Positions 460-59,513 of a DNA stretch of 64,000 nt are shown piece by piece. Both the position numbers and the translations under genes were made by a program. Each line of letters starts with the position of its first letter. Within the stretch, counting starts at the first letter, position 1. The stretch comes from a virus. The stretch lies in the UHGV virus genome UHGV-1370141; one strand, written 5' to 3'. A model generated the notes under the pieces. The model ran no database searches. It had not been told where the DNA came from and saw nothing but the letters and a program-made list of their open reading frames with translations.

Positions 460-2559
460 TTACTCAATAATCGTTGCTGCGACAGAATTGTCGTACAACG
501 AAGCAGGACGTTTACGTGACGTATAGAAACGTACGTTGTCCAAGTTCTTCTGCTGTCCCTCAAACAACAACATCGGGATTGCAGAACGCATCGCAATCAG
601 TGTATTGTGATCTTCGAAGCGTTTTCCTTCTGCGGCATCGGCATCCTCACTGTCAAACCCTACTGCCGGGAATGGGTTAGTAGGTGACTCAACACGAGAG
701 ATTGCCAACATAATCGCGATGTGCGTCATCGGAATCCCTTTGAGCTTACGTTGGATATATTTGAACACGTAGAACAACGCATGAGTACATTGTTTTTCCG
801 TGGCACCACGCATCTGAACGAGGGTAATCGGTTTAACCTTACCACTCTTCTTGCTCAAACGCATTGACTCGTCCGAGAACTGTTCGAAGTTATCTGACTT
901 GTCCGATGCTACCGAACGTAAAATCAATTCCAACCCTGCTACAAACTCCGCCATAGATTCAGACCGATTCGTATAAATTAGGATCGGCCAGGACGGTTTC
1001 CATCCTTTTAGCGGAACACGCACCGTTTTCTTGCTGGGGAATACGAGCTTATCACGATTCTTCAAGAAGAAGCGAAGGAACGACTTAGAGAAGTTACCGC
1101 AGACGCCCATTCGAACGTCAATCGGATCTTCTGCCAGGATGTTCCCTTCTGCATCTAAACGAACAAACGTAAGGTCATTAATTTCCGGGAGTGCCGTTTC
1201 ATCAATATCGTCCAGGTCTTCATGATACGCAATCTGGCTAATCTCTGAATAGACTTCATCCGAAATTACCAGTTGGTATTCATCCCAGGTACCGTATTGC
1301 GGCTTCTCCAGTAAACTAATCCCTTTAACGGAGTTGTGCTTATACTCCGTGAGATAATCACGCATTCTTGGCGACAAGACCAAGTTCAGCAGATAACGCA
1401 GGAAGTCAAGGTGTTTCGTCGACAGAATACCTTGAGTGCCCTTTTCTGAAATTGCGGTTGACGCAAGGTGACCCGGTGATGTGCCAGGTGACAGGTTATA
1501 AATCAAGTCACCCATACACGTTGCACAGATAGTCTGTCGTGACATCCCTTTGCAACACATCGCGGTACGGAACTCGATAGGTTTGTTCAAGACTTTCTCA
1601 AACTCACCGTCTTCGAATCGTAACCACGGACCACCAGTACCTTCGAAGCGATAACGCATTCCTTTCATCGCTTTGAATTTCGCTTCTTCCAACGGCGAAT
1701 TCGTAAAGGTGTGTCTGTGTACGTGATGTGTACCACAGTCTTCGTAATCGAAGAACATCAGCACGTTAGCCGCTAACTGCAACTTACGCGATGCGTACTC
1801 TGCGTCTGCAATCTTGTCGGTATTATACAGGTGAGAACGCGATGTCGCACCTGCTTCTTTCAGTCGACTGATAACAGAATGCAAGCCGGTGAAGAAACCT
1901 TCCCATACCTGGTTAGAGTACACACGGGAGTCAATCTCTGAAGTCTTACCACGAATGTAAGCCTGGAGAATCTGATCCATTTTCAGTGTGCGGTCTAACA
2001 CAGACATGACAACTGGGTTGTTTGAGAGTCTCGGATCTTTAAAGATTTTCTCAATGAGTTGATAGGCTTCTTCTACCTTATCGTTACCTTCCTCATCGTA
2101 ACCCGTCGGATAGAGTTTAGACCATTCGATAATCAGCTTGAAGTTTTCATGCTGATAAATCTCCATCATCGTATCGTAGTCAATGGTAACACAATACGAC
2201 AACAGGTTTTTCACCGTCAGGTTAAACGCGTTTGCATAAACGTGCTGCGATAACAGGTAACGGGTATCGGCCAGATCCACTCCGGCCTTACGTGCTGCTA
2301 CAGCTGCCAACGACATAAAGCGCAGATGCGCATCGTCAGTTGCCGTGTCGCCATGCTTATACGCCATGTTCGACGAGATTGGCACTTGGGGATAAAACTG
2401 GGTTAATCCCCAATACGGCCAGCTCAACTTAATGTGTCGACCAGACATTCTCAACGTGACCCCATCGTCGAAGGACACGTCGTAAACGCCCCGAAGTAGC
2501 CACACCTGATCCGAATTCAACTTGCACAAGTCTCTTACGTGAACCGGAGTCGCCTTCAT
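460..2559 (-). CDS. multisubunit RNA polymerase beta' subunit, C-terminal fragment (bridge helix + trigger loop region)
   Basis: AAVAARKAGVDLADTRYLL resembles the beta' bridge helix (GARKGLADTALKTA..YLTRRL); AISEKGTQGILSTKHLD resembles the trigger-loop segment SIGEPGTQLTMRTFH. Start overlaps stop of upstream gene (TAATG). Confidence 0.7.
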   Translation of the reverse strand: MKATPVHVRDLCKLNSDQVWLLRGVYDVSFDDGVTLRMSGRHIKLSWPYWGLTQFYPQVPISSNMAYKHGDTATDDAHLRFMSLAAVAARKAGVDLADTRYLLSQHVYANAFNLTVKNLLSYCVTIDYDTMMEIYQHENFKLIIEWSKLYPTGYDEEGNDKVEEAYQLIEKIFKDPRLSNNPVVMSVLDRTLKMDQILQAYIRGKTSEIDSRVYSNQVWEGFFTGLHSVISRLKEAGATSRSHLYNTDKIADAEYASRKLQLAANVLMFFDYEDCGTHHVHRHTFTNSPLEEAKFKAMKGMRYRFEGTGGPWLRFEDGEFEKVLNKPIEFRTAMCCKGMSRQTICATCMGDLIYNLSPGTSPGHLASTAISEKGTQGILSTKHLDFLRYLLNLVLSPRMRDYLTEYKHNSVKGISLLEKPQYGTWDEYQLVISDEVYSEISQIAYHEDLDDIDETALPEINDLTFVRLDAEGNILAEDPIDVRMGVCGNFSKSFLRFFLKNRDKLVFPSKKTVRVPLKGWKPSWPILIYTNRSESMAEFVAGLELILRSVASDKSDNFEQFSDESMRLSKKSGKVKPITLVQMRGATEKQCTHALFYVFKYIQRKLKGIPMTHIAIMLAISRVESPTNPFPAVGFDSEDADAAEGKRFEDHNTLIAMRSAIPMLLFEGQQKNLDNVRFYTSRKRPASLYDNSVAATIIE

Positions 2560-4823: not shown

Positions 4824-4845
4824 GGTAGGATAATATCTATCTCAC
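4824..4845 (-). promoter_or_regulatory. recurrent promoter-like motif (coding strand GTGAGATAGATATTATCCTACC)
   Basis: About 30-40 nt upstream of the SD (AAAGGAG) of the beta-like gene; same motif recurs upstream of at least 7 other minus-strand genes. Coordinates approximate. Confidence 0.45.
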
Positions 4846-5221: not shown

Positions 5222-6601
5222 CTAGTACGAGCTCTTAAACGGACTCGTAGAAGCACTAGCAAATGGGTTGCTTGTACTACTACCAAATCCGCTAGACGAA
5301 CCAAACTGAGGCTGGCTGCCGAAAGAGCTGCCTCCGAATGATGAACCCCCGCCAAAAGAGTGCCCGCCACCAAACGTATTCGACAGCGAGTTCGGTTGAC
5401 CGAATCCACCTACGTCACCAAAACCGCTGTTCTTACGCTCGCCACCGAAAGCATCTACTACAGAAATCCGTCCTACCATTCCTGTACCAGCCAGGTTAGT
5501 TGTGTTGTGTTCTTCCACAAAACGCTGCATTGCTGGAGAAAGATTACCGAAGCTGTTCGTTGGAGTCATCCGTTGCTTACGCGCACGGAAGAACTCTACC
5601 GGATCGTCCAGGTTCGGCTTATCCGCATCAGACGCCTTCTTCGTCGGGATCTGTTCCGTTGCCGACGATCTGTCAATTCTGAACTCACGGGCACTGGTAT
5701 CACGCTCAGGATTGTCTGAACGTGGACCGGTGTTATACGGTAAGGTCTGGATGACATTATCGTAAATCTCCATGTTGTCCAGCTGTGAAATCCATTCATC
5801 GTCCAACGGGCGCAGTGGTGTGTGGTCACGTAGCCCTTTCACTACGTTATTGTAGTTTACCACGTACTGTGCCCAACCGCGTGCTAACGACCCGAAGTAC
5901 GGACGGGAATCGTTAGAACCGGTGACACTTGGATACCAACCGAACACAGTAGTCAGCAGGCGATGAATAATCACCTTATCCTGTTTACGTTGAAGCTTCA
6001 CCGAGAAGTACATTGCAGTACCGTCTAAGGATTCTTCTTCGAACATATGGCGATAATTAGCCACACGGTTAAACTTCACACCGTCGATAACTAAATCAGA
6101 TGCAATAAAGAGCTGGGTAACTTTGTGCTTTTTATCGCGCTCCAATAAGCCATAAACGTATTGTTTAACTGCTTCCCAGGATTTTACCAAACGATCGTCA
6201 AACGTCGGATCTTTCATCCCTTCACAAATCTGTTCCGTTAAGAACTTCTTGTACGCCGCAGAACGAATTGCTTTACCACTGGCAGCCGTTTCCAGAATAG
6301 CGTCAATCAACGCAAAGGAACGAATGAACAAATTCGCATTGATAGATTTCTTCAAGAAACGGATGGTGCCCGATTCACCGGCCAGCACAGATTCACAGAG
6401 AGGATGGAATGCCTGACATTCACGTCCATCGTCATCTTCCATTCCTTTCTTAATCATTGCCGACGTTGGAAGCGCCAGGCGGCGCTTCACTTTGTTGTAG
6501 GTAAATTCTGCTGGCTCACCGTCATCACGGGTAAGCAAATCGTTCTCGAAATCGAATCCTTGTGATTTAAGAAACGATTTATAGAATTCAATAATTTTCA
6601 T
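5222..6601 (-). CDS. hypothetical protein with C-terminal FG-repeat low-complexity tail
   Basis: 459-aa ORF; last ~90 aa contain ~9 FG dipeptides in S/G/N/Q-rich spacers (AFGG, GFGD, GGFGQ, TFGGG, SFGGG, SFGGS, SFGS, QFGSS, GFGSS). Confidence 0.65.
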   Translation of the reverse strand: MKIIEFYKSFLKSQGFDFENDLLTRDDGEPAEFTYNKVKRRLALPTSAMIKKGMEDDDGRECQAFHPLCESVLAGESGTIRFLKKSINANLFIRSFALIDAILETAASGKAIRSAAYKKFLTEQICEGMKDPTFDDRLVKSWEAVKQYVYGLLERDKKHKVTQLFIASDLVIDGVKFNRVANYRHMFEEESLDGTAMYFSVKLQRKQDKVIIHRLLTTVFGWYPSVTGSNDSRPYFGSLARGWAQYVVNYNNVVKGLRDHTPLRPLDDEWISQLDNMEIYDNVIQTLPYNTGPRSDNPERDTSAREFRIDRSSATEQIPTKKASDADKPNLDDPVEFFRARKQRMTPTNSFGNLSPAMQRFVEEHNTTNLAGTGMVGRISVVDAFGGERKNSGFGDVGGFGQPNSLSNTFGGGHSFGGGSSFGGSSFGSQPQFGSSSGFGSSTSNPFASASTSPFKSSY

Positions 6602-8359: not shown

Positions 8360-10021
8360 TTACTGATTAAACCACGCCACTTCTTCACATTTCTTCCTGT
8401 TCTGAATTAACAGGAATTCTGCTAACATGTTCTGAAGTCGTGGGTGTGGTGTGTAGCCTAACATCACTTCTCCACTCCGAAGCATTCTTGCTGCTTCAGG
8501 TGTTGCCCTGAGATTGAAGTTAAACGGCGCAATATGTTCACGTACCAACAACGTCAAAGACGTCTTCAATGTTGACTGTTCGTAGATATTGCGATTGGTA
8601 CGGTATGCCTGAGGATAAAATCTATCCGATTTTATTTTGATCTCATTATCAATAGGTTCGATTGGATAACCCCCATTGTTGGGATCTAAAACCATTTCAC
8701 AGCTTAGCAACTGTGCAATCTCATGCATTCCGTAGTAGATATAAATCGCTTGTGCGATCCCCATTGCATTCTTAAACGCAGCAGCGTCAATGTCCTTATA
8801 GGTTCTGCGGTCAGCAAAGCGATGCAGTGCGGCTGCAACCAACCACTCGTACAGTTCGTAGAACGGATATTGATGATTCAGGTGAATAGAATCAATCAGT
8901 ACCTTAGCATCCGCAGGAGCGATATCGATCCCTAAGGAACGAACCACACGACGATAATCGTTGAAAAACTCTTGGGTACGAACAAACTCTTTCATCGGCG
9001 CTTTAGAGCGCGCTTGAACCAAGTCTATCGCACAAGTTTTCCCTTTCTCACCGTTAAACATAATCTTTTCAGGATGCGCTTTTAAGATGACGTTCTGTGA
9101 CGAAATCTTTCCTGCAAATCCTGTTTCGATTTCCTGCTTGATATTAAAGTACATCCCTGCAACGATGTTGTTCTCCACCATCGTACCTGGAGGTAACTCT
9201 GCGCCGATGAGTTTCATGGCGATTAAGCGAATCACCGCGAATGCCATGATGTACTCTTCCACCATATCCGTACCGTAACCACAGATAGAGGCCAGCACCG
9301 TTAAGTTCGCACTGTTCGGTCCTTTATTGCCACCGTCCTGTACTTTCGAAATCACCGACACTAAGAAGTCCCGCAATTTACTGATTGCAGGTAGTTGTGC
9401 TATCTCGGTGTCGTAAAGCAATTCCATGCAATGGGTTAAGTTATAAACGCTTTTCCGCTTGGAGTCCACAGCGGCGCGTGTTGTTGGGAAAGCATCCATG
9501 ACCAAGAATACCGGAATGAACGGTTTTACCATCAACGACAGTATGACCAGTTCGTAGTAGTCTTGTACGATATACGTCATCTCTTTCGGATAGTTAGATG
9601 ACATTTCTTCGTAAGTTTCGTGGACGTTTTGAGGAATCCACACGGAGCTTTGTGGATAGAGTTGGCGGAATCTGTCCGCGTGGTGGAATTTGGCAATTTG
9701 TGCAACAATCTCTGGCGCATGTTTACGAATCGTTTCGGGTTCTTCATTACCCAGCATTTCTAACTCTTCGTACGCCGAGAATAATTCTTCCTTTTCCTCC
9801 GACGTTAACGTTGACCAATAACGTTCGATTTCCATGAACATAATTTTGTCATGGGTAACCACTTTGCCGGAGCTATCGCGTACGTCTGGCACATTCGCAT
9901 CTTTGCGTCCATTACGGAATCCGTTAAACCCTACTTCCTTATCACCGTAACTAATAATGAGACGGTCGCGATTTTTCTCAATACGCATTTTAAAATCTCC
10001 AGGGATAACATAGTCGACCAC
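8360..10021 (-). CDS. hypothetical protein
   Basis: 553-aa ORF; track start is GTG at 10021, a more plausible start is the ATG at about 9988 (M12) preceded by GGAG. Confidence 0.6.
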   Translation of the reverse strand: MVDYVIPGDFKMRIEKNRDRLIISYGDKEVGFNGFRNGRKDANVPDVRDSSGKVVTHDKIMFMEIERYWSTLTSEEKEELFSAYEELEMLGNEEPETIRKHAPEIVAQIAKFHHADRFRQLYPQSSVWIPQNVHETYEEMSSNYPKEMTYIVQDYYELVILSLMVKPFIPVFLVMDAFPTTRAAVDSKRKSVYNLTHCMELLYDTEIAQLPAISKLRDFLVSVISKVQDGGNKGPNSANLTVLASICGYGTDMVEEYIMAFAVIRLIAMKLIGAELPPGTMVENNIVAGMYFNIKQEIETGFAGKISSQNVILKAHPEKIMFNGEKGKTCAIDLVQARSKAPMKEFVRTQEFFNDYRRVVRSLGIDIAPADAKVLIDSIHLNHQYPFYELYEWLVAAALHRFADRRTYKDIDAAAFKNAMGIAQAIYIYYGMHEIAQLLSCEMVLDPNNGGYPIEPIDNEIKIKSDRFYPQAYRTNRNIYEQSTLKTSLTLLVREHIAPFNFNLRATPEAARMLRSGEVMLGYTPHPRLQNMLAEFLLIQNRKKCEEVAWFNQ

Positions 10022-10022: not shown

Positions 10023-10045
10023 AAGATAAAATCTATCTAAGATAA
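10023..10045 (-). promoter_or_regulatory. recurrent promoter-like motif (coding strand TTAGATAGATTTTATC)
   Basis: Variant of the GATAGATATTATC motif immediately upstream of the 8360..10021 gene. Approximate. Confidence 0.35.
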
Positions 10046-14498: not shown

Positions 14499-14738
14499 CT
14501 ACCCCGCCATTAAGATTAATTCTGAGTCGATGGCGATACCCGCCTCCAGATCTTCTTCGGTATCGCGTAAGAAACGGTTTTCCATGCTGATAAGCTCATT
14601 GTGTAACACCATGCTGCTAGACACTTCGTCTACGTTTGTGCTGGACATAAATCCGTTATCTGGGCGATAAGCCAGCGCCAAATCCATCTCCGTGGTATCG
14701 ACTAAAAGTCTAACCTGTAATTGGTCGCCGTCGAAATC
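14499..14738 (-). CDS. RNA polymerase beta' N-terminal-like subunit, exon 2 (starts at the DFDGD catalytic triad)
   Basis: Frame of track ORF 14499..14783 from codon 16 onward: DFDGDQLQVRLLVD...GFMSSTNV aligns with beta' [15 protein letters not shown]...MMSTNNI. Confidence 0.75.
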   Translation of the reverse strand, partial: DFDGDQLQVRLLVDTTEMDLALAYRPDNGFMSSTNVDEVSSSMVLHNELISMENRFLRDTEEDLEAGIAIDSELILMAG

Positions 14739-15088
14739 CTGTTTGTCCACTCCATTCCTTTTGGAGCAGGTGTGCAATGACACCCTCCCATGTTTTCACA
14801 TGGGCACAGACTATATCATAACCGTAGGTATTGCTACCCGTAGGTCTCCCCCACTTCGCCGCTAAACTAAGCAGCTACTCTACTCGGTTTTACCCTTTCG
14901 ATAGTCGTTGAACGATTTTCATCGCTGCTGGTTATCCATTATCACAACCCTTAGCATTATTGGTTAGCATAGGCTATCTTACGAATTGTTTCTGACTTTC
15001 GCCACCCTGTCGGGATCGTAAGCTTTAGGAGTTTCCAGCAATTCGAGGGATACGCACTAGAGGTTTCCCGTCTAGTGGGCCAAATTTT
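14739..15088 (-). ncRNA. group I self-splicing intron (ORF-less, about 350 nt) interrupting the RNAP beta'-like gene
   Basis: Separates ...KAPNA from DFDGDQ...; 5' exon ends in U, intron ends in G; contains P-like ACGGGAAAC, Q-like AUCCCGACAG, R-like GUUCAACGACUA and S-like GAUAUAGUCU elements with complementary GACUA/UAGUC (P7). Confidence 0.8.
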
Positions 15089-46470: not shown

Positions 46471-46621
46471 TTATTTTCTCCGTCGATGCGACAGATACAC
46501 CAAACCGTCAATCGGTTTAGGTAACCCTAACGTTCTGGAGAGTGGGTTCTGCCAGGCCGTAGGGTTAATCGGTGTAGGAGGGATATAGGTACGTTTTACC
46601 TTCCCTCCGAGTATCGCAACC

Positions 46622-47104: not shown

Positions 47105-47125
47105 TAGTTTTATTCCTTCAGGTTA

Positions 47126-47797: not shown

Positions 47798-47818
47798 TTA
47801 TAAAACCTTACATGTCGA

Positions 47819-48208: not shown

Positions 48209-48209
48209 C

Positions 48210-48599
48210 TTAGCTACCTACGCTAGAAAGCATCCAATTGTTTCTGATGGCGTTAATTTGTTTAACGGATTCCCGAATACCTTCAAATAGTTCGATGCGT
48301 TCCGATGTGGAAAGACACTGTTTAAGATCTTTATCGAGAGAGAACAGCATCGCCAGTTTTGCAAGCGAAACACTCAAGATATCAGACAATTCATTGTTTC
48401 TACGCCACTCGGGATTACGGAAGATAGTCACCAGACGTCCGATGCTTTCGCAAGGACATTCTTTGTTCAGTAGTTTGTCACGTTGCTCGCACAGATAAGC
48501 CTCATCTGTAATTAATCGTTCCAGGTCATCTGGACGCATGATTGCACGAGTAGAAATCATTAGTACAACAAACGGGTCTTTGAATAATTCGTTTTTCAT
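48210..48599 (-). CDS. hypothetical protein
   Basis: 129-aa ORF with AAAGGAG SD and promoter-like motif upstream. Confidence 0.5.
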   Translation of the reverse strand: MKNELFKDPFVVLMISTRAIMRPDDLERLITDEAYLCEQRDKLLNKECPCESIGRLVTIFRNPEWRRNNELSDILSVSLAKLAMLFSLDKDLKQCLSTSERIELFEGIRESVKQINAIRNNWMLSSVGS

Positions 48600-48650
48600 C
48601 TTTAATACTCCTTTAGGTTAACAAGTCGAATAGCGTGTAATTCTACAACG

Positions 48651-48675
48651 CTCACCTAAGTAATATATATCTAAG
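48651..48675 (-). promoter_or_regulatory. recurrent promoter-like motif (coding strand CTTAGATATATATTACTTAGGTGAG)
   Basis: About 50 nt upstream of the 48210..48599 start. Approximate. Confidence 0.4.
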
Positions 48676-48741
48676 ATATTTTTCAATAGGGCTAAAAATA
48701 AGTAGGGTAGTCTATCCAATGGATAGACTACCCGAGAGGTT

Positions 48742-49293
48742 TTACTGCACGCACAAAATTTGACCTGAGTATTCTAAGGGACTTTCTGCAAACGTCCTGA
48801 TTTGTCGGCAAATCACATCGACTTCAGGTTCGTTCGTCCGCGTATAAATTGCGGTCCCGCCCTTTAACACCCACTCACGGCAATTACGACCATAATCGTC
48901 AACCAACAATCTTCCCTTCTCCGCGTAGGTCGCTTTCTCCGCAGAGGAAGTTGTCACGATGACTTTATGGCCAGGGATACCGAAGTGTTTTTCGAAGAAT
49001 AATTTTTTGCTTTCTACAACACGGTCGTGGTCGAAATGATCTTCTGAACCTGACGTTAAAATCGCCCAACATTCTCCCAGACTTTCTACTGTTTCGAGGA
49101 TTTTAACGGCCTCGGGTATCGGGTCTAGTTTATAAAAAAGATCCGGGTCGTTTAAATAGATTTCCCGCATCAAAGCACGACGATGCAACTCTGGCATTCC
49201 GTGAAATTCTTCTATACTCATTCCTTTAAGGTGGTGTTCCAAAACGTAACCACGCCAGTTTGCGAAAACGCCGTCGCTGTCTAAATTAAACAT
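48742..49293 (-). CDS. HAD-superfamily hydrolase, 5'(3')-deoxyribonucleotidase-like
   Basis: N-terminal FNLDSDGVFANW (DxDGV motif I), AILTSGS (motif II-like), LLVDDYGRN (motif IV-like). Confidence 0.5.
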   Translation of the reverse strand: MFNLDSDGVFANWRGYVLEHHLKGMSIEEFHGMPELHRRALMREIYLNDPDLFYKLDPIPEAVKILETVESLGECWAILTSGSEDHFDHDRVVESKKLFFEKHFGIPGHKVIVTTSSAEKATYAEKGRLLVDDYGRNCREWVLKGGTAIYTRTNEPEVDVICRQIRTFAESPLEYSGQILCVQ

Positions 49294-49350
49294 ATTTGGT
49301 TATCCTTTGTAATTTTCCTCCGACACAGTAAACGGTAGAAATTGTAAAAA

Positions 49351-49650
49351 TTAAGACTGCTTAATCGAAAGAATGAACCGACAAGGTTCAGTTAACAAGA
49401 GATACGTACGCGCAAAGTCGATTTCGGTTCCAGCTTTACGGACGTCGCAATAAAATTTTGCGATATCTTGTTGTGAAATACCTGCGACAATGTTGTTTAC
49501 TTTACGTTTGGTGTCGAAACGTTCAGCGAGTATTTCGGAAAGCACCTCCTTTCCTGCACGTCCTTGGACGGCAAAGATTGTTAGTGCTTTCAATTCCTCA
49601 GGCGTTAAAGTTTGCAAAGTCGGAGGTATGGCAATGTTAACCACTTTCAT
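49351..49650 (-). CDS. hypothetical protein
   Basis: 99-aa ORF. Confidence 0.45.
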   Translation of the reverse strand: MKVVNIAIPPTLQTLTPEELKALTIFAVQGRAGKEVLSEILAERFDTKRKVNNIVAGISQQDIAKFYCDVRKAGTEIDFARTYLLLTEPCRFILSIKQS

Positions 49651-49699
49651 GCTTCCCTCACAATCGACAAATTCGGGTTGCAGACCATGAACTGGGCGA

Positions 49700-50338
49700 T
49701 TATGGAGTTACAGTGTATTCGTTTAACGCAGCGTCAAAAATACCACGCGAGATTTCTGTCGCATCACTAACAGCAATCAGCGGTTCCCGTTCAGAGATAG
49801 TCACCGTGATTTCGTAAAACTTACCTGCCTTTAACAGCTGGTTATTGTTTAAACGAACGTCTTCGTGTAACGCAACAGCGAGTGTGTGTTTATATCCGTT
49901 ATCTGCTAATCGAACTAGGCGCAACTCACCGATAACGGTGGGTTTGATTTCCCAGTTCGATAAACGATGTGGAACAATCCAAACCTCGTTCGCACGGAAA
50001 GGTTCACTTGAGAGTTCTACCGATGGTTGAACAACGTCACGCTCATCAAATGCATGAAGATAGTAACGGTGTCTCAGGTCCTCATAAGGACTCGGTACGA
50101 AGTAACGTCGAACGCCGCGCAAACATTTTTCTAAATCGACAGAACAACAAATACGAGGAACCGTTTTGTCTTCGTCGCTGTAAACGCTATGAGGAATCCT
50201 GGGCGTAAAGACCGGGATTTTTTTATCGCTGATGTGGAGTGGAGCGGTATCCAGTTTTTTCAACGAAACTTTTTTCGCGGTACGTGGCAACTGTTGCTCC
50301 AACCACTTTACCAGCGAAGGTTCGACATTATCAGCCAT
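49700..50338 (-). CDS. hypothetical protein
   Basis: 212-aa ORF. Confidence 0.5.
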   Translation of the reverse strand: MADNVEPSLVKWLEQQLPRTAKKVSLKKLDTAPLHISDKKIPVFTPRIPHSVYSDEDKTVPRICCSVDLEKCLRGVRRYFVPSPYEDLRHRYYLHAFDERDVVQPSVELSSEPFRANEVWIVPHRLSNWEIKPTVIGELRLVRLADNGYKHTLAVALHEDVRLNNNQLLKAGKFYEITVTISEREPLIAVSDATEISRGIFDAALNEYTVTP

Positions 50339-51142
50339 TTACCACTTCCCGTTCCCTAAGCCCATAACACGCAGGTTGGTGCGTTTGTTGGCAATTGCCA
50401 GATACTCCTGAGCTAAAGCACGGACTTCACCACGACGGGATTCCGTTGCGATAGTTGAAGTGGTGTTTGGATTACGCAGGATGTCTTCCAGCGCCTGAAG
50501 CGACACACGGCGGTCCAGCAGGACACGGGTAGATTCCTGAGCCACTTTGCTACCACGCTGAATCGCGGAGTATTTGTTGCAAATCTGAAGCCCATCTTCG
50601 ATAACCCAGTCGAAGGTGACCAGACGATCCAGACGACGCGTTTTCACCCCACCAACATACCCTTCACGTACGATAGCACGCAGAGAGAAGCAAACGTTTT
50701 GATGTGGATTCTCTAACGCTTCTGCCAGATACGGACCACGTTCACGGTTCGGTTTAATCCAGCCCCAGATTTCCATTACCGGCAAACCATTACAGGTCTG
50801 GTCGGTCGGAATAACTTCAACTTCACGAATGTGCATACAGACGTTTTTCGTCTCAATCCATTCGTTACGGTCAATCCACTGCGCTTCGGTCATTCCCGGT
50901 TCTGGTGCAGGGTGGTCTTCTTCCCCGAACAGGTTACCGGCTTTTACTTTACGCATGAAAATGTTAGAGCGTTCGAATACGTGCTTAGACTCGTTATAGG
51001 CGTAGAAAATCCCTTCCGAGTTAAAAATATTCAGAGCACCCAATAATACGCGGTAATAACCATCCGCGTCTTTCTCCAGAGTAGCTGGAGCATTAACACC
51101 GGCTAACGCTACGCAATTGTAACGTAGGGTCAAGTTGTCCAT
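50339..51142 (-). CDS. hypothetical protein
   Basis: 267-aa ORF, directly abutting the downstream gene. Confidence 0.5.
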   Translation of the reverse strand: MDNLTLRYNCVALAGVNAPATLEKDADGYYRVLLGALNIFNSEGIFYAYNESKHVFERSNIFMRKVKAGNLFGEEDHPAPEPGMTEAQWIDRNEWIETKNVCMHIREVEVIPTDQTCNGLPVMEIWGWIKPNRERGPYLAEALENPHQNVCFSLRAIVREGYVGGVKTRRLDRLVTFDWVIEDGLQICNKYSAIQRGSKVAQESTRVLLDRRVSLQALEDILRNPNTTSTIATESRRGEVRALAQEYLAIANKRTNLRVMGLGNGKW

Positions 51143-51173
51143 TGTTTTCCCCGAGTGAAAGTAAAAAGGTAAA

Positions 51174-51908
51174 TTACCTCATAAACAAATCTTCGAGCGG
51201 TTCGGCACGTACCGGGTCAACTTGTAGCGCAGAACGAATACCACGTTTCAGTTCTACGTCAGCAAGCTTCGCCAGTCTCGACGTTTTGTTAAGAGACCCA
51301 CTACGTAGTGGGATGAATTGGACAGGGTTGTTTAAGTCACTGTCTTTTTTCAGTGTATAACGGAAAAACGTTTTTGGATCACCCACTTTACGCTGCGTGT
51401 GTGCAGCATAAACGTCAGCGGTAATCTGGTCGGCAAATACAGTAAAACCGTTCCATCGCTTTACCTTATCCGGTGCTAATAGTTCAGCATCGTCGTAAGC
51501 GGTAAACCAGAAAGGACGGTTACCAAAGTCGTAAATATACGACGCAATGTTGTATATCGGTGCGGACAACACCTGTAAATTGCGGTTGGGGAAAACCACT
51601 GTGCCGGGGTCAAAACGAAATTCGTAATAAGGGACGCCAAAGACGTCAATCTCTTCAAACGCCGTTGGGGTAATCTCAATCAGTGTTGTGACACTGGAAA
51701 CCCCGTAAGTTTTACGGTCCGTTGAGATAGCAAAAATACCTACAATCGTTACCGTAGAAGAAATAACCGCCAACTCTTTCGCCACAAACCCAACGGGGAT
51801 GTAAATGTAACATCCCCCTTTGGTAGTGGTGACCGTGCCGTTATTTACCAAGTCCGCATGAATCTTAGTGGGATCACGACGGGCTGTTTCAATCGCACTC
51901 ACGATCAC
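51174..51908 (-). CDS. hypothetical protein
   Basis: 244-aa ORF. Confidence 0.5.
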   Translation of the reverse strand: MIVSAIETARRDPTKIHADLVNNGTVTTTKGGCYIYIPVGFVAKELAVISSTVTIVGIFAISTDRKTYGVSSVTTLIEITPTAFEEIDVFGVPYYEFRFDPGTVVFPNRNLQVLSAPIYNIASYIYDFGNRPFWFTAYDDAELLAPDKVKRWNGFTVFADQITADVYAAHTQRKVGDPKTFFRYTLKKDSDLNNPVQFIPLRSGSLNKTSRLAKLADVELKRGIRSALQVDPVRAEPLEDLFMR

Positions 51909-51919
51909 CTCCTATTGCA

Positions 51920-53380
51920 TTAGAGTTTGTCAACAAACACAGAACCTGAAATCCAGTCCAGAACGTAGTCAATCATCCAACTGGTTGCTGCTTGTGACGG
52001 GTCTTGATTATCCACCATCGCCTGGTGAATCGTCCGCATCAGTGGGGCAATTTCCCATACGCGGAACACGTCATTACACGCGGTCTGGATAATAAAGAGC
52101 GTGATGTCATCATCAGCACTGCTAAAGAAGGCGTCACAGCTTGCCATGACCCAACGTTTCACGTCTTCACGCGTACGCTGGTCTTCTCCGTTATCGAAGT
52201 AGCCCTGATCGAGTTGGTCAATAGCCAGTGAGAACGCCGTTTTCAGTGACTGACGGTTACGTGTTACCCAGTCCTGTTCGTTTTTCTTCTGCGTGATAAT
52301 CGCACGACGGTTATAAGCGTCGACGTACGCATTCTGGTTTTCCAGCAGTGCAGGAACACGTGCAGAAACGTTATAGTCGCCTTCGTCCATCAGATAGATA
52401 GCGCCCAGAAGACCTTCAACGATACCACCTTTAGACAGATAGTCATCCATCGTTTCCTGACAGATGTACACGTCTTTCTTATCGGTGTCGTAGCTGTAAA
52501 TAATGTTACCTGTCGCGACACGGTTCAGGATTTCTTTTTCGAAACCGTAAACCCAACCGATAGAGGTGTAGTAAGCACGACCCATCTCTGCTTTCCACTT
52601 CAACGCGTCAACGCCAGAGTCAGGCCAAGGACGTTCGATGTAGTAGGAAGACAGCAGCAGAACCAGCACACGCTCTTTCAGAATCATCGGTGCGTTGCTT
52701 GCAACCGGTACGGTGTTGTTACCGGCCAGGATCAGTTTAGCCGCATCGTAAATGCTAATGCCTAAATCGTTAAGCAGGCTACGTACTAACTCGTCGTACG
52801 CCTTAACACCGGTTTCTGGGATTTCGATGTTGGTTGGAACGTCGAAATTAATCGGGTCGTAAGTCGTCCCGTTGCCCATCGGGTTAGCGATTTCCTGAAT
52901 CAGTGCCTGGACAACTGGAGAATCAACACAGCTGTCGATACCCACCGGAATCAGGTTCCAGTCTTCTACCAACGGTTTAACTTCGTCGATAACGTTGTTC
53001 TGAATAACCAACTGAACGAACGGTTGCACCACGTTACGGGCGAAATCAAGCATCCCGTTGCAGCGTTGAATTGCCATGTTCTTCAGTTCGAACAGCGTAG
53101 TTTCATGATCGTCAACACGCAGCGCTTCTGGCTCAATGGCACCGTCACGGATAACGGACGCTTCTGACGTTGCCTCCGTCGGACGTTTCAGCTGAGTGAT
53201 TGCTGGCAGTTCCTGGAAGAACTGTTCGTCAGTAATGGTGGTATCAAAAACACGAGATGGATCTACCGCACGGTTCAGCAGGTCAACCGGAGAGTCAACG
53301 TCGGTGCCGAGTTGAATGTTGTGCTGTTTGCACAGCTTCATGGCGTTGGTAACTGCGTTCAGCGAGTATAAACTGATCAT
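51920..53380 (-). CDS. hypothetical protein
   Basis: 486-aa ORF. Confidence 0.55.
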   Translation of the reverse strand: MISLYSLNAVTNAMKLCKQHNIQLGTDVDSPVDLLNRAVDPSRVFDTTITDEQFFQELPAITQLKRPTEATSEASVIRDGAIEPEALRVDDHETTLFELKNMAIQRCNGMLDFARNVVQPFVQLVIQNNVIDEVKPLVEDWNLIPVGIDSCVDSPVVQALIQEIANPMGNGTTYDPINFDVPTNIEIPETGVKAYDELVRSLLNDLGISIYDAAKLILAGNNTVPVASNAPMILKERVLVLLLSSYYIERPWPDSGVDALKWKAEMGRAYYTSIGWVYGFEKEILNRVATGNIIYSYDTDKKDVYICQETMDDYLSKGGIVEGLLGAIYLMDEGDYNVSARVPALLENQNAYVDAYNRRAIITQKKNEQDWVTRNRQSLKTAFSLAIDQLDQGYFDNGEDQRTREDVKRWVMASCDAFFSSADDDITLFIIQTACNDVFRVWEIAPLMRTIHQAMVDNQDPSQAATSWMIDYVLDWISGSVFVDKL

Positions 53381-53670
53381 TGTTTAACCTCATTATTGGT
53401 GGTGATGGCGTCCTGAAGCTTCGTGTACAAACGAGCTCCCACCAGGTCAGCGATATCGCGTTTCAGCAGTTTCTGATCGCCGATACGGTCAGACATTCCA
53501 GAATTGCCACGAATCAATCCGTGCACGATTTCGGTCGTCAGTTCAACCGTGTTGCCCAAAGACACGTAGTTAGTACGTTGGATAGGGCTATAGCCTTCCA
53601 CGCTTTGCTGGGTAATATTTTTCCCAGTCGGAATACCGTGTCGCTGTTTGATTTTATCTAAAATAGACAT
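53377..53670 (-). CDS. hypothetical protein
   Basis: 97-aa ORF overlapping the downstream gene by 4 nt. Confidence 0.45.
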   Translation of the reverse strand: MSILDKIKQRHGIPTGKNITQQSVEGYSPIQRTNYVSLGNTVELTTEIVHGLIRGNSGMSDRIGDQKLLKRDIADLVGARLYTKLQDAITTNNEVKQ

Positions 53671-53691
53671 TCTCTACTCCGGAGTTTATCA

Positions 53692-53710
53692 GGGTGGGAG
53701 CGACCCACCC
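53692..53710. other. intergenic stem-loop between the beta-like gene and the next gene
   Basis: gggtggg-agcga-cccaccc, no clear T-run; possible processing or attenuation site. Confidence 0.3.
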
Positions 53711-53717
53711 CTTGAGA

Positions 53718-56700
53718 TTATTTAAGTGTCGCTGGTAACTCAGGCACGGACTCGCCGTCGAGGATACGACCGATAAGAATCCCTGCTTGTTCACCCACAG
53801 CATTTGCGGTACCGATTCGTTGGATAGAACCTACGATACGTGCGTCGACAGAATCACGACCGAACAAAATGTCAATGTCATCGCCATCTTCTGTTTTGTT
53901 TTCCCCGTACATCACTTCTTGTACAGTGGTTTTCAGCTGGTTAGCAATAACCATCTTATCCGCTGCGGCCATTTCCACTTCGTGCGTAATAAAGAATCGA
54001 ACACAAAGCGAGTTAAAGGCTAACGGTACACCCTCTACACGGTAATCCCCATTAACACTCCCTGATACCGGATCGCCACGATTAACAGCCAATGCTGCTT
54101 TACGACGAATGCGATCGTATTTACGTACCAGTTCTGCCAGTGAAGGCGTCATGTCTTCGGTTTCACCGTGATATACGACTTCGATTTTATCCACGATACC
54201 ACGAACCCCAGCACGAGGCGCGTACGAACTTAAACTTTGCAACGTTTGTGCTGCTTCCTTACTAAAGGTACTCATATCCCCCGTAAGGTCGTCAGTAAAT
54301 GTGCATAGGATTGTGTCGACGTCAACGTGTTCCCCTTCGTTAACGATTTCCAGGAGCATCTGGTTGCTGTTAATCACCACTTCTTTCAGCTTAGTAACCT
54401 GCCCAACCATTTTCTTCGCGAACCGTTCAGAAATAGCATTGGAGTCTTCGATTACTTCTTCAGCTTCGATTAGAGCGACGGTAGCCAGCACCCCGTTTTT
54501 CCAGGAAACCTGAGTAGGGTCGTAGATATCGGGTTCAAAGTGTTGCTCGTTATAGGTGATGACTGCCCCGGCCGGGAGTTTGTCACCGGCTTTCCAGCGA
54601 GTCACCAGGGTGTGCGGATAGAAGGTACCTTCGTGGGGGCCGAACCAGCGCCCTAGAGGAAAGGCTTCTTTACTTCCATCTTCGTACGTAATTTCGATAT
54701 GGTCTTTAGACAGACCGGTGATTTTACCTGCTTTATCAATAACGCGTGCGTGTTTCACCGATGTACGGTGAGCGACAAATTTCTCCTGTTCGGTACGATA
54801 AGGGGTAGTGGTAGCGCCGTTGCAACTGGTGGCAGAACCTAACTGAATCCCAACGAAGTTTTGACGTTTAGCGTCGTCCATCAGGGTATCCGGCACGAGA
54901 CCGTCAATAAATGACAGAGTGTCGCTCGGCTTCAGTTTCTTTTCATCCCGTTTATAGGTTGTGCCGTCAACGGTATCAAAACGCGGGTTGTTGGTGGCGA
55001 AAGCAGTAATACCTACGTCACCGTTATCCACCGTGTTACCGGATACAATACCCAGGTCACTCGGTTGGAACTCACGCGTGTGATAAACCATTGTTTTACG
55101 GTTACGGCCACCCGTACCACCCATGGTGATAACGTCTTTCTCTTTAATCGACTGGATAGGGTTAGCACCCGGCGCTAACAGAACAGACGGGTCGGAGTTA
55201 ATTGCGCCCCAAATCATGTCCTGAGTAAGCTCGAACTTACGGTTACTGTTCGGTGCGTTGTTGTAGTTACGCATCGCCCTGACCATCGCAGTGTAGATGT
55301 GGTAGGAAATACGTTGGTTCCCTAAGAACATCATTTCATCACCGTTAATCTCCGGTAAAGAGTGGTCGGTTTGTAACAGTTCGTTAGAACGTTCCAATAG
55401 CCCGATAAAGGTTTCCGGTTCACCCATTTTCCTGAGGATACGTGCGTGCATGTCATCAACAAACGCGGCCCGCATTTGTTTCAGCTCGTTGATGTAGCGT
55501 GGAGTTAGCCCATCTGCATCACGTATTAAGTTCAGGTAAATGTCTTCGCGGTCGACTTCGGACTCGGTATAAGCTACCAGGTGTTTCAGGTACTTATCCA
55601 GACCGTGTAGAATCATTCGTTGCTGATCGTTATCACACGTTACCAGGAACTTACTGTCCTGGAGACGAATAATAGAATCGTACGTGCTCTTATCTACACG
55701 TTGGCCAACAGGGACGATTTCGTACTGAATACCGAAATGTTTAAGCATCCCTTGCAGACCTAAATAGAACGAGAAGATGAAGCCCAGTGAGAGCGATTTG
55801 CCCATCAGTGAAAGCTCGGTCATTTCTCTTGGCGCTTTCTGGCTACTGAAGCCAAGCACTTCCGAGATGGTACCCAGTGGTGTACACTCTTTACCCTTAA
55901 CGGTATAGAGCATGGACTTGGTATCCATCACCACAATAACTTCACTGCGCGGACGTTTCGCAACCGGCAACATCTCAACGTTGTTTGCGTCAGTAAGCTG
56001 TTCGTCATTAAAGAAGTTAACCGCTTCTTTATAATCGAAGTTCCACATATACCCGCCTGCATTGAAGCTGGCGATACGGCGTGCAATCTCCGTGTACTGA
56101 CGAGGAAGTTTCTCTGTAGGATCGAAAACGTTCGCGAGACGTGCGTCGGTGATCTCCGTGTTGGTCGGGTCTACGGCACGCGTGATAATCGCGTTCGTTA
56201 ACCAACGGCCGTAGTCGTTTGCGACTTTGTCACTACGACGTACGAAGTTTTTACCGTAAGCGGTAGTTAACGCTACGGTGTCTGGGGCGACCTTACGAAT
56301 CGGAACGTCTACACGCTGACGACGCATGGTGTATTCAACACCGTTTGCTACCCAGGTACCGTCTTCGGTTAAACCAGGGATAGAGAAACGCACTGTCGTC
56401 GGTTCACCACCAATCGGTTGAACACGCAGGGTGTGGTGTTCGATAGTTCCCGTAACGGAAACCTCTTTCTCGATCGTGTGGTTGTGAATAGCTAAACCAA
56501 GACGCTGCGAGCTGGCGACTGCTGCCAGCACGTCTTTACTCATCATGGTCTGGTTGTATTGTTTCACCATTTGGTCGGTGACGTTTTCTGCCCAACCTTC
56601 ATCCGTAACCAGTCGCTGGACTTTCTTCGGTTCCGCTTTCACGGCAATGTCTTTTTCGTGAATGGTTAATGCTTCACCGTAAGTCTCTTTCGGGTTGTAC

Positions 56701-57884
56701 GGGTTTGGTAACTGAACGAAACGTTTGGTCGAATCAGACAGGAATTGATACGCTTTGGAGCTTAAGCGGCCCGCCTCAGCCAGTTTCTGCGCTTCCTGTT
56801 TGATAATGTCATCGTGAGCAATCGTTTTTTCGATAACGATAGTCGTCGGCTTAACGTCTTCTTTCGGCTCCTCAATAACGAGGTCTTCTTTTTCATCGAA
56901 AGCGTTATCCGATTCAACCACAGCGTCGTTAACAACGTCTGTATCGTCAACGACGTCAACGGTATCCTCTTCGATGTCCTTAACAAAGATACGTTCATCA
57001 CCTTCCGGTGTCAGGAATTCAGCTTCGTAAGCATTAGACGGTGCTTGAGTCATTACACGCACTAACGTACGATAGAACATCCTGGCCATCTGGTCGTCAC
57101 TTAAACGGCCACCGGACGATTTACGCATCTTCTCCACGACACCCATGTTCATCGACGTAAAGCCGCCGTTGTGGGTGAAGATGAAGTTCATTCGAGACAG
57201 TTGCGTTAAGTCCATTCCCGCAAACAGAGAATCGGACTGTTTACCGTACGCCCAAGCGAACAGTTCCAATAACCACAGCAGGTTAAAATCCTGGAACTTT
57301 TCAATCTTGCTTTTAACACGATCGTTATACGTCGTTTGGAACTTCTGGAAAGACGGTAACGTTGACCCCAGCTCAATCACGAAGTAGTTCTGACGCATGT
57401 ATTCTTGCGTGTCGTATTTGAACTGGTTAGTCATTAACAGCTGGATGTTACGCAGTCTGTCGTACCAGGCTAGTTGAGTGTCTGGATAATAGTAGTGCGA
57501 TAACATCGGTGTATAGTTCTCAATAAGGAGAACTTTTAAGTCTTTACGAATCAGGTCATCTGAAGTCAGACGACGAATTGGACGGTTAGCGCGATGATAC
57601 GCAAAGATAGCACGTTCTTGCCCCTGCACAGGTTTGTTACGTGGATGCCCACTGATCCCTTCTTCGGGAAGTTTAAAGTGGTGGCGAATTTGTGCAGGTT
57701 TTTCCAACGGCTGGATGATTTCCAGCGTAGCAGGTGGCGCTAAGACCACCTGATCGAGATCCACGACGTGCAGTATGGAGCCTCGTGGTATCTGGAGCTT
57801 CTCGAGCGGGATAATCCTCGGATTACCAAACTCGTCTGTTTTACGCACAGAGAAGCGTTGGTTAAACTGTTTAATGAGCAGCAT
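53718..57884 (-). CDS. large RNA polymerase beta-like subunit (second RNAP set), 1388 aa
   Basis: Weak but ordered beta-like motifs in the C-terminal half: QPSDLGIVSGN (EGPNIGLI-like), KAGKITGLSKDHIEITYEDG (NRHGNKGVISKI..YDENG-like), LGRWFGPHEG (GGQRFGEMEV-like); immediately downstream of a beta'-N-like gene. Confidence 0.45.
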   Translation of the reverse strand: MLLIKQFNQRFSVRKTDEFGNPRIIPLEKLQIPRGSILHVVDLDQVVLAPPATLEIIQPLEKPAQIRHHFKLPEEGISGHPRNKPVQGQERAIFAYHRANRPIRRLTSDDLIRKDLKVLLIENYTPMLSHYYYPDTQLAWYDRLRNIQLLMTNQFKYDTQEYMRQNYFVIELGSTLPSFQKFQTTYNDRVKSKIEKFQDFNLLWLLELFAWAYGKQSDSLFAGMDLTQLSRMNFIFTHNGGFTSMNMGVVEKMRKSSGGRLSDDQMARMFYRTLVRVMTQAPSNAYEAEFLTPEGDERIFVKDIEEDTVDVVDDTDVVNDAVVESDNAFDEKEDLVIEEPKEDVKPTTIVIEKTIAHDDIIKQEAQKLAEAGRLSSKAYQFLSDSTKRFVQLPNPYNPKETYGEALTIHEKDIAVKAEPKKVQRLVTDEGWAENVTDQMVKQYNQTMMSKDVLAAVASSQRLGLAIHNHTIEKEVSVTGTIEHHTLRVQPIGGEPTTVRFSIPGLTEDGTWVANGVEYTMRRQRVDVPIRKVAPDTVALTTAYGKNFVRRSDKVANDYGRWLTNAIITRAVDPTNTEITDARLANVFDPTEKLPRQYTEIARRIASFNAGGYMWNFDYKEAVNFFNDEQLTDANNVEMLPVAKRPRSEVIVVMDTKSMLYTVKGKECTPLGTISEVLGFSSQKAPREMTELSLMGKSLSLGFIFSFYLGLQGMLKHFGIQYEIVPVGQRVDKSTYDSIIRLQDSKFLVTCDNDQQRMILHGLDKYLKHLVAYTESEVDREDIYLNLIRDADGLTPRYINELKQMRAAFVDDMHARILRKMGEPETFIGLLERSNELLQTDHSLPEINGDEMMFLGNQRISYHIYTAMVRAMRNYNNAPNSNRKFELTQDMIWGAINSDPSVLLAPGANPIQSIKEKDVITMGGTGGRNRKTMVYHTREFQPSDLGIVSGNTVDNGDVGITAFATNNPRFDTVDGTTYKRDEKKLKPSDTLSFIDGLVPDTLMDDAKRQNFVGIQLGSATSCNGATTTPYRTEQEKFVAHRTSVKHARVIDKAGKITGLSKDHIEITYEDGSKEAFPLGRWFGPHEGTFYPHTLVTRWKAGDKLPAGAVITYNEQHFEPDIYDPTQVSWKNGVLATVALIEAEEVIEDSNAISERFAKKMVGQVTKLKEVVINSNQMLLEIVNEGEHVDVDTILCTFTDDLTGDMSTFSKEAAQTLQSLSSYAPRAGVRGIVDKIEVVYHGETEDMTPSLAELVRKYDRIRRKAALAVNRGDPVSGSVNGDYRVEGVPLAFNSLCVRFFITHEVEMAAADKMVIANQLKTTVQEVMYGENKTEDGDDIDILFGRDSVDARIVGSIQRIGTANAVGEQAGILIGRILDGESVPELPATLK

Positions 57885-57887
57885 TGA

Positions 57888-59513
57888 TTAGCCTTTTGGA
57901 TTCTTTAATAACGCTTGCGTCGCACGTTTAATCACGTTGTTGACAGGATTGATTTTGAAATTCCCGTCTGAATCGAACCAGTAGTTCTTCGAGTGTATCC
58001 AGTTACGGTTTTCCTCGAGTGCTTCTTGCGACATAGGCGCGTTAAGTGAACCGGTGTCACCATCGTAGTCACCCCCTAAGCCACCCAATCGTGACGGGTG
58101 CGGTGCCATCGACTCGACAAAGGTTGGAACCGACCTGTCAGGATAACTGATAGCTCCGTGTGGCTTTTCAGTCTCCCAGTCATCTTCCAGTTCTTTTAGG
58201 TATAAAGATGACGTGGTGGTCTCCAATCTTATGGTCGATGAGTACGTCGAGCCTCGACCGGTGACGGGATAACGTGTAACGAAACCGAAATAATTGTTCC
58301 ACAGTTCGTAACCCGATAAATAGAGTAATTCTACCAGGGTCATTCCGTGGACGTTTTTACGGTCAAACGTTTTAGGCAGTTCGTCGATATCGTAGAACAC
58401 CTTAAAATGTTTGTTGTCTTGGTAGACCAGTGCGACATAATGGGTATCGTTAATCATTAACGGTTGATGACGAAGCTCGCGAGCTTCCATCCGGTTAATT
58501 AATGTTTCGATGCCATCGTCCGTGGTAAAGGTGTCGTAAACACGACCCCCAACCTCCAAGAACTCACGTTTAAGCGTTTTGGTGTTCACGCCATAAAGGT
58601 TGCCATCGCCAGCACGAATGTTACCGAGGTAACGTTCACGTATCTGGTATTGCGCAACAGGTAGCAACGCTTTCAGACCCTGATACAAACCAATTTTGGT
58701 GTCGGTCGGTCGAATCGCATCCTCACGTCCCATGCATTTAGAGCCTGTGGAGAATGAGGACAACACGTTACGTGTCCCGTTCATCAGTTTACGCGACGTC
58801 ACTTTACGACGTTGGAAACCTCCTTTACCGTCCTGGATGTTAAAGAAGTACATCCAGATTTCGTTAAAGGTTTGTTGGAGTTTCCATCGTACAGGGTTCG
58901 TTAATTCAACCCGTGTAGCACGGTCAGGAATCGCCCTGGCCAAAGAAATCAAACGACGATATAACCCACCGATTTCCTCTTCCTGTTCCCTACCGTCTTG
59001 TCTAACCACCAAATCACGTAAACCCGCGGGTAATACGAGAACATAGCGGCTAAGACTCACGGGACGGAACTTCTCGAAGAAATCCACCGTTTCGTCACGT
59101 TGTAACGATTCGTTACGTCCGGGTTTTAAGTCGTTGTAGTGACTAAGGAAAAAGTTAAAACCGGTATCTGCGCCAGCGTCGCCAGGCAAAGCCGGTTCAA
59201 AATCTTTTTCTTTTTCGCTCCAGGTTGCGTAGCGTTTTCCAGAACAAATTTCTTCGTAGAGTTGTTTTAGTTGGAATAACGCCAAACACACCGTCGGCGA
59301 AATGATATCTAATTTAATATCAATGTAAGAAAACGTTGAGTCTCGGGCTTCACTTCCCGTAAGACCGAATATCTCCGTGGAGTACAACCCTTCAGGGTGA
59401 AAGTTTTTTGTCAACCCTTGAAAAGTATCTGTGGTCGTGACGGGTCGTAATCGCGACACAAGAGACTTGTTTACATTGAGCAGATAAAAGTCAACCCAAT
59501 TAAGTTTATTCAC
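57888..59513 (-). CDS. RNA polymerase beta' N-terminal-like subunit (second RNAP set)
   Basis: [10 protein letters not shown] resembles [33 protein letters not shown] resembles [45 protein letters not shown] resembles [23 protein letters not shown]; GTG start with AGGAG SD. Confidence 0.7.
   Translation of the reverse strand: [541 protein letters not shown]

Follow-up and report, generated by a model that had tools for sequence, protein, structure and literature searches.

Parts of two split multisubunit RNA polymerases, very probably of the phiKZ type, in a 64,000-nt fragment of a jumbo-phage genome

Does a stretch of viral DNA from UHGV virus genome UHGV-1370141, in which several large open reading frames (ORFs) resemble pieces of RNA polymerase (RNAP), carry one such enzyme or two, and which of them would travel in the virion? 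The whole stretch analyzed here (the window) is 64,000 nt long and amounts to about one quarter of the genome of a jumbo phage resembling SPN3US and phiEaH2. An earlier inspection of its letters and ORF translations (the sequence-only reading) had named five ORFs with beta or beta' signature motifs and proposed that they belong to two RNAPs, as in phiKZ-like phages. Following up this proposal, we find it very probable that pieces of two bacterial-type multisubunit RNAPs, both split and highly diverged and both of the phiKZ type, are encoded in the window, namely a virion RNAP (vRNAP) and a non-virion RNAP (nvRNAP). Such a two-RNAP arrangement is a well-known hallmark of phiKZ-related phages and not a new system.

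All five ORFs are found on the minus strand at exactly the coordinates named beforehand (Table 1), and each matches a PHROG RNA polymerase beta subunit family; the motifs that had been aligned by hand are real. Profile and structure searches, which had been proposed as the check that could overturn the assignment, recovered RNAP beta or beta' for every ORF. The subunit labels proved right for all five, and the ORF formerly called 'beta-like' can now be specified as the large beta fragment of the vRNAP. Furthermore, the five ORFs are collinear orthologues of SPN3US genes with the same split points and sizes and with amino acid identities of 67–87%, a range that includes the orthologue of SPN3US gp244 discussed below. 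Against Pfam, only nvRNAP beta-C passed (RNA_pol_Rpb2_6, 25.2 bits with a cut-off of 23.4) and the other four ORFs gave no match; because Pfam is too insensitive for these proteins, its silence is not evidence against their identity as RNAP subunits.

The first set consists of the beta'-C, beta-C and beta'-N ORFs at the left of the window, and its members match the chains of the phiKZ nvRNAP. More specifically, phmmer searches of the PDB align beta'-C with 7ogp_D (PHIKZ074, 7e-33) and also with AR9 7s00_D, beta-C with 7ogp_C (PHIKZ071, 3e-30) and also with bacterial beta at about residues 820–940, and the spliced beta'-N with 7ogp_A (PHIKZ055/056.1, 2e-37). The corresponding PHROG families are phrog_3015 for beta'-C (E 8e-222) and phrog_3295 for beta-C (E 6e-254), and the two proteins are 73% identical to the product of SPN3US 31251–33356 and 71% identical to their SPN3US counterpart, respectively. 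Catalytic motifs are retained: the two-lysine DPBB motif (double-psi beta-barrel; GDKxxxRHGNKG region) reads SSKITDRSGTKG in beta-C, and the Mg-binding NADFDGD occupies aa 455–461 of the spliced beta'-N, with the catalytic DFDGD in exon 2. The beta-C stop and the beta'-C start share 1 nt, and a GC hairpin followed by a T-run, with a predicted function as terminator, directly follows the beta'-C stop codon.

The gene order of set 1 follows phiKZ gp50–gp75. The phiKZ nvRNAP is composed of gp55, gp68, gp71-73, gp74 and gp123, of which gp68 is a sigma-like fifth subunit required for activity and promoter binding (PMC8287921). Based on the phiKZ gene order, an ORF that the sequence-only reading had not listed was singled out as the gp68 homologue and then confirmed against PDB 7ogp_B (PHIKZ068, phmmer 8e-10) and by BLASTP against phiKZ gp68 (7e-10, nearly full length). 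As called mechanically this ORF has 553 aa, whereas the gene caller applied to identical contigs gives 542 aa from an ATG at 9988, 11 codons later, which is probably the true start. Another ORF considered for this role, 5222–6601, has no PDB match and is by synteny the gp70 homologue. Four of the five nvRNAP subunits (beta'-N, beta'-C, beta-C and the gp68-like protein) are thus in the window and beta-N (phiKZ gp123) is expected to lie outside; a PHROG scan of the remaining window ORFs of at least 100 aa found no further RNAP family. Judged by this orthology, set 1 is the non-virion RNAP. By analogy with phiKZ and AR9, it would be made early, transcribe late genes and be missing from virions (PMC7598289, PMC8287921).

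The sequence-only reading had also placed an intron within the beta'-N gene, and both an Rfam match and a gapless spliced alignment to SPN3US bear this out: the interruption, 15088–14739, is a real group I intron. RF00028 scores 63.7 bits at 14787–15099 on the minus strand (gathering score 50) and covers model positions 1–253 without truncation. The 5' exon ends in U15089 (...GCU), which is paired to a G in P1, and the last intron base is G14739, after which exon 2 opens with the codons GAU UUC GAC GGC GAC. The read-through ORF 14957–16456 matches phrog_2987 (E 2e-136) over aa 9–456 only, that is, exactly to the end of exon 1. The 535-aa product predicted after removal of the intron shares 67% identity with its uninterrupted SPN3US counterpart, with no gap at the junction.

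Homologous introns allow the RNA structure to be assessed. An RNAalifold consensus of four homologues that are about 70% identical contains 93 pairs, 38 of which show compensatory double changes (covariation term -14.4 kcal/mol). The splice-site U-G pair in P1 is invariant in the four homologues, and the neighboring pair changes from C-G to G-C in step with the exon codon, which is GCU (Ala) or GGU (Gly); the guide co-varies with the exon, GCU being paired to GGC and GGU to GCC. The same site holds an ORF-less intron of about 70% identity in EC001, JN03, 1252, SPLA3 and SPLA5c. It is occupied in Proteus phage 7 and SaP7 by an intron with an HNH_3 + NUMOD1 ORF in the P1 loop, and SPN3US, the SPFM phages, phiEaH2, Stratton and Asesino have no insertion there.

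Two further observations concern the relatives of this intron. In Proteus phage 7 (1991–2851) and in phiKp_32 (771–1790), the I-HmuI-like endonuclease ORF (HNH_3 + NUMOD1) is flanked by the 5' and 3' strands of P1, and it is found neither in the window intron nor in that of EC001. In the distant jumbo phages Klebsiella phage phiKp_32 (2160–2482) and Raoultella phage VB_ZK_P1 (2159–2481), the same beta'-N site is occupied, the next 12 nt are GATTTTGACGGT (DFDG), and a further 311-nt insertion follows before the frame resumes (GATACCATG...). This second insertion begins after a U and ends in G, and that of VB_ZK_P1 has no Rfam match even at E = 1. The arrangement looks like two introns around a 12-nt micro-exon inside NADFDGD.

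The intron raises the question of whether the gene still functions. It could be argued that the interrupted beta'-N is a dead gene that is never spliced, and that the phage relies on the host RNAP or on the vRNAP alone. Splicing is indeed a prediction from sequence, and the homing-endonuclease ORF carried by relatives in the P1 loop has been lost here, making the intron a degenerate mobile element. An insertion that no longer splices, however, is at odds with the full-length Rfam match above the gathering score, with the compensatory changes and with a guide that tracks the exon codon. The exons are intact, in frame and align without gaps to the intron-less orthologue, the three remaining nvRNAP genes of the window are unbroken as well, and the identical interrupted gene is present on five public contigs. 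We consider a dead beta'-N very unlikely, and splicing of the beta'-N mRNA is predicted by analogy with SPN3US, phiKZ and AR9. Introns in jumbo-phage RNAP genes are well documented (PMC11620839, PMC12908238).

The second set, near the right end of the window, consists of the large beta fragment and a second beta'-N and is orthologous to SPN3US virion proteins. The large beta fragment starts with a non-RNAP extension of about 400 aa and continues with beta through the DPBB-B inclusive; it matches phrog_3148 (E 0) and is 77% identical to SPN3US gp241. The beta'-N fragment matches phrog_2986 (E 3e-235), is 86% identical to SPN3US gp240 and carries GGDYDGD at about aa 480–486. Single-sequence phmmer searches of the PDB with both vRNAP ORFs gave no matches, and family alignments were therefore built. 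The resulting profile of the large beta fragment matches Thermus thermophilus beta (3.7e-12, residues 529–656 and 822–880) and aligns AADKMVIANQLKTT, the two-lysine DPBB motif of this protein, to the GDKLANRHGNKG segment of the bacterial chain. A 'GDK' at aa 1100 had been a candidate for this motif; the profile alignment puts the true motif at about aa 1307–1320. The beta'-N family profile matches the AR9 nvRNAP beta'-N (2e-13) and bacterial beta' around NADFDGD (Escherichia coli 447–507). Catalytic residues are among the invariant columns of the set 2 homologues, down to 27–40% identity.

Structure prediction agrees with these profiles. An AlphaFold2 (AF2) model of aa 400–1388 of the large beta fragment has a predicted local distance difference test (pLDDT) score of 87 and a predicted template modeling (pTM) score of 0.83, and the top Foldseek matches are all bacterial beta (best E 3e-27, template modeling score about 0.5). 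The beta'-N model (pLDDT 81) is matched best by AR9 7s00_d (1.3e-15), followed by bacterial beta' and cyanobacterial gamma, with beta' chains at E 1e-12 to 1e-15. In SPN3US, gp240, gp241 and gp244 were identified in virions by mass spectrometry, gp241 is essential, and an amber mutation in gp241 causes gp240, gp241, gp42, gp218 and gp244 to be lost together (PMC5105663). On the strength of this orthology, set 2 is the virion RNAP, and its packaging in the window phage would follow the SPN3US example.

Table 1. Coordinates of RNAP genes and associated features in the window.
Feature	Position	Strand	Remarks
Terminator-like GC hairpin + T-run	436..457	-	Directly after beta'-C stop codon; 9-bp stem with 6 GC pairs, then TTTTTTG (consensus scan)
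nvRNAP beta'-C fragment, 699 aa	460..2559	-	SPN3US gp35 and phiKZ gp74 orthologue
nvRNAP beta-C fragment, 746 aa	2559..4799	-	Carries DPBB-B; phiKZ gp71-73 orthologue
Promoter-like motif core	4828..4842	-	Upstream of beta-C/beta'-C pair
phiKZ gp68 homologue, sigma-like fifth nvRNAP subunit	8360..10021	-	phmmer, BLASTP, synteny, phrog_3209
Promoter-like motif copy	10024..10038	-	Upstream of gp68-like gene
nvRNAP beta'-N exon 2, 79 aa + stop	14499..14738	-	DFDGDQLQV...; in frame with exon 1 after 350 nt removed; aligns to SPN3US C-terminal part
Group I intron, 350 nt, no ORF	14739..15088	-	Between Ala and Asp codons of NA|DFDGD
nvRNAP beta'-N exon 1, 456 codons	15089..16456	-	Ends ...VIKAPNA; phrog_2987, PDB match
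Promoter-like motif, two tandem copies	18432-18446, 18512-18526	-	Upstream of 16545-18383
SPN3US gp244 orthologue, 244 aa, candidate vRNAP beta'-C	51174..51908	-	87% identity; phrog_2926 virion structural protein
vRNAP large beta fragment, 1388 aa	53718..57884	-	SPN3US gp241 and phiKZ gp178 orthologue
vRNAP beta'-N fragment, 541 aa	57888..59513	-	DYDGD catalytic loop; SPN3US gp240 and phiKZ gp180 orthologue

The two sets are ancient paralogues. They are barely alignable by BLASTP (best E 0.001 over 50 aa), which, together with the blindness of Pfam to set 2 and the extension of the large beta fragment that is unrelated to RNAP, could suggest that only one set is a working transcriptase and that the other has decayed or been re-purposed, for instance as a structural head protein. 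We judge this even less probable than the loss of beta'-N: the DxDGD loop and the two DPBB lysines are kept in both sets, the models of set 2 can be superposed on full-length beta and beta' chains, the catalytic residues are invariant among distant homologues, and the SPN3US orthologue gp241 is essential. Two working enzymes remain the preferred reading.

Location had been suggested as a hint to which set is which, the first lying among genes preceded by promoter motifs and the second near candidate structural genes. Both observations stand, as a promoter-like motif precedes two nvRNAP units and set 2 has genes for a prohead protease, a sheath and a terminase around it, along with a giant tail-fibre ORF that continues past the window edge. 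The orthologue of vRNAP beta'-M (phrog_2962, E 3e-169), which is 68% identical to SPN3US gp42, however, adjoins the nvRNAP cluster, about 5.5–6.8 kb beyond the left window edge on contigs that carry an identical beta'-C gene. Position is therefore not a safe guide, and the sets are assigned by orthology.

The promoter-like element spans about 35 nt, TCGAAA..GATAGATATTATCT.nGTGA, and its core has 14 matches in the window compared with 1.06 expected, a count that none of 100 shuffles reached. In addition to the copies in Table 1, strong minus-strand copies are present upstream of several small genes, and further occurrences of GATAGATATTATCT lie at 26187, 28572, 33872 and 48658. A scan for sigma-70-like promoters in the window showed no enrichment (24 matches, 28.3 expected). 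Two-RNAP jumbo phages each possess an AT-rich early promoter of their own that the vRNAP recognizes (PMC7598289), and by this rule the motif is a putative early promoter recognized by the vRNAP. Its presence upstream of two nvRNAP units is consistent with early nvRNAP synthesis. The GTG 'starts' at 10021 and 33869 on the minus strand (mechanical ORFs 8360–10021 and 32712–33869) are the conserved GTG of this motif and not real starts. The tandem copies precede 16545–18383, a 612-aa ORF located where phiKZ has gp54, the protein of the nuclear shell (chimallin); BLASTP of this ORF against phiKZ gp54 is not significant (E 0.049), and chimallin is a putative assignment by synteny and size.

Following the model established for SPN3US, phiKZ and AR9, the vRNAP would be synthesized late, packaged in the head and injected with the DNA. 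Once injected, it would transcribe early genes from the conserved AT-rich promoter, among them those for the nvRNAP subunits beta-C, beta'-C, the sigma-like gp68 homologue and beta'-N. The ORF-less 350-nt intron would have to be removed from the beta'-N mRNA first, and the nvRNAP would then carry out middle and late transcription independently of the host RNAP.

Nothing contradicts this interpretation, but several points limit it. Neither RNAP is complete within the window: nvRNAP beta-N and vRNAP beta-C were not seen in it and both would lie outside, and the five-piece vRNAP (beta-N, beta-C, beta'-N, beta'-M and beta'-C) is represented by two certain pieces and one candidate. No early-promoter motif is located directly upstream of the nvRNAP beta'-N gene, and a strong terminator-like GC hairpin with a T-run (16457–16544, minus strand) separates the upstream gene from the beta'-N start; this gene may be expressed by read-through or from another class of promoter. 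Several steps of the proposed transcription program rest on relatives (SPN3US, phiKZ and AR9) rather than on the window phage itself.

The remaining points concern the candidate piece, the gp244 orthologue, which the sequence-only reading had not listed. SPN3US gp244 was proposed as the missing C-terminal beta' piece of the vRNAP from its co-dependence with gp241 and a weak HHpred match with an E value of 0.05 (PMC5105663). A profile of 15 gp244-family sequences searched against the PDB matched no beta' chain, hhalign of the family with the nvRNAP beta'-C alignment gave E 0.18 and a probability of 0.3%, and beta' C-terminal homology (a17–a20) was not found in the gp244 family. Given these profile and hhalign failures and the weak published support, we filed 51174–51908 as a gp244 orthologue with an unproven beta' role; the protein would probably still be part of the vRNAP. 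The same profile gave one marginal PDB match (E 9e-4, aa 114–223), which falls in the C-terminal half of 8v9t_V, a 'helicase loader' chain of 233 aa.

Comparison with known systems places the locus closest to SPN3US (Seoulvirus). The vRNAP proteins gp240, gp241, gp42, gp218 and gp244 of that phage, as well as nvRNAP gp35 and its partners, have gene-for-gene collinear orthologues within the identity range given above; its beta'-N is uninterrupted, whereas that of the window phage contains the group I intron. The phiKZ nvRNAP (PDB 7OGP) has homologues of four of its five subunits in the window in the same order, with proteins that are about 19–27% identical. There too, a group I intron interrupts beta'-N within NADFDGD, but one codon upstream (N|ADFDGD, in agreement with the 417-DFDGD-421 numbering in PMC8287921) and with the HNH endonuclease gp56. 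In addition, phiKZ beta-C contains an intron (gp72) and the window beta-C is uninterrupted. The nvRNAP of Bacillus phage AR9 (7S00/7S01), the best structural and profile match of the vRNAP beta'-N, shares the split after DPBB-A; this phage is nevertheless very distant, with a uracil-DNA genome and a different promoter logic (PMC7598289).

Cyanobacterial and plastid beta' is likewise split directly after DPBB-A (gamma/RpoC1 and RpoC2; PMC7598289), and the top fold matches include chains of cyanobacterial gamma and of plastid RpoC1. Cellular enzymes comprise alpha, omega and sigma subunits, whereas in the phage enzymes alpha and omega are missing and a gp68-type factor is used.

The PhiPA3 gp210 intron (Birkholz et al. 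2024, PMC11620839) is another group I intron that splits a jumbo-phage RNAP gene at a conserved codon of the active site. It interrupts vRNAP beta, whereas the window intron interrupts nvRNAP beta'-N, and the relatives of the latter encode an HNH endonuclease of the I-HmuI type. Because the window intron has no endonuclease, it could confer at most immunity to cleavage and no attack on a competitor. A speculative and, in our estimate, unlikely possibility is that the ORF-less intron destroys the homing site and thereby shields the essential beta'-N gene from the HNH endonuclease of co-infecting relatives that carry it in the same intron (Proteus phage 7, SaP7 and phiKp_32 type). In that case it would mirror the PhiPA3 gp210 interference system on the defensive side. 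As part of the same conjecture, the intron could act as a timing gate for the early-to-late switch, since splicing would be required before any nvRNAP is made.

The window derives from a phiKZ/SPN3US-type giant phage that is associated with Salmonella. A megablast search with both window ends found matches only in the jumbo-phage group of SPN3US, phiEaH2, Stratton and Asesino, at about 72–76% DNA identity, and matches at 90–95% identity were also listed within 44000–59500; a repeated search of 59500–64000 for high-identity matches returned a single, trivial one of 42 nt. The SPN3US gene order is collinear with the window in reverse orientation, running across the ends of the SPN3US record, and shared neighbors include a prohead protease, a tail fibre, SbcD, a DNA polymerase and a helicase. 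A PHROG scan of essentially every window ORF of at least 100 aa identified DNA polymerase, SbcD, terminase, tail sheath, prohead protease and virion proteins. Since DNA identity to SPN3US is only about 72–76%, the window phage represents a different species or a genus-level lineage.

Proteins identical or nearly so (99–100%) are present in isolate assemblies of Salmonella enterica (serovars Wangata and Chester), where they are annotated as 'hypothetical protein', and the 90%-identity clusters that hold them contain 207 and 717 member sequences. The contigs in the Salmonella assemblies are about 220 kb long, and such proteins also occur on metagenome contigs of about 222–224 kb; one contig of about 222 kb is ena:ERZ27318489:k141_194930. 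An identical copy of the beta'-C gene is indexed in 361 blocks of an assembly collection, on contigs of up to about 224 kb. The window phage is therefore frequent in public sequence data, yet the phage record collection holds no entry with more than about 76% DNA identity to it. That these proteins are filed under Salmonella enterica could suggest broken cellular rpoB/rpoC genes from a bacterial or plasmid region, the least credible of the alternatives and one already refuted by synteny and gene content: gene order matches that of SPN3US and phiEaH2 throughout the window, it contains terminase, tail sheath and prohead protease genes, the standalone contigs are phage-sized, and identity to bacterial beta and beta' is only 12–14%.

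For annotation, the window would belong to a jumbo phage with a two-RNAP transcription strategy independent of the host RNAP; its genes are labeled 'hypothetical protein' in public assemblies, and the intron-split beta'-N is called there as two unrelated ORFs. Nothing new emerges about the RNAPs themselves; the lineage is one not yet present as a phage record. Modestly useful are the exact splice map of an intron in a catalytic motif, which varies among SPN3US-like phages in its presence and in whether it carries an HNH gene, a candidate consensus for early promoters of the lineage and the negative test of the beta' nature of the gp244 family.

Two minor features lie between the two sets. A single tRNA gene at 30040–30116 (minus strand) is called tRNA-Ile with anticodon AAT by ARAGORN and scores 40 bits with the Rfam tRNA model; A34 in a tRNA-Ile is unusual for bacteria and phages, and the corresponding SPN3US region contains tRNA-Trp and tRNA-OTHER. 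Further along, 31066–32711 comprises 1.6 kb without ORFs of at least 100 aa and corresponds to the ORF-free start of the SPN3US record. This segment includes a run of about 180 nt (31859–32036) of almost pure A/T with many overlapping palindromes, and might serve as an origin or in packaging, or mark a terminus.

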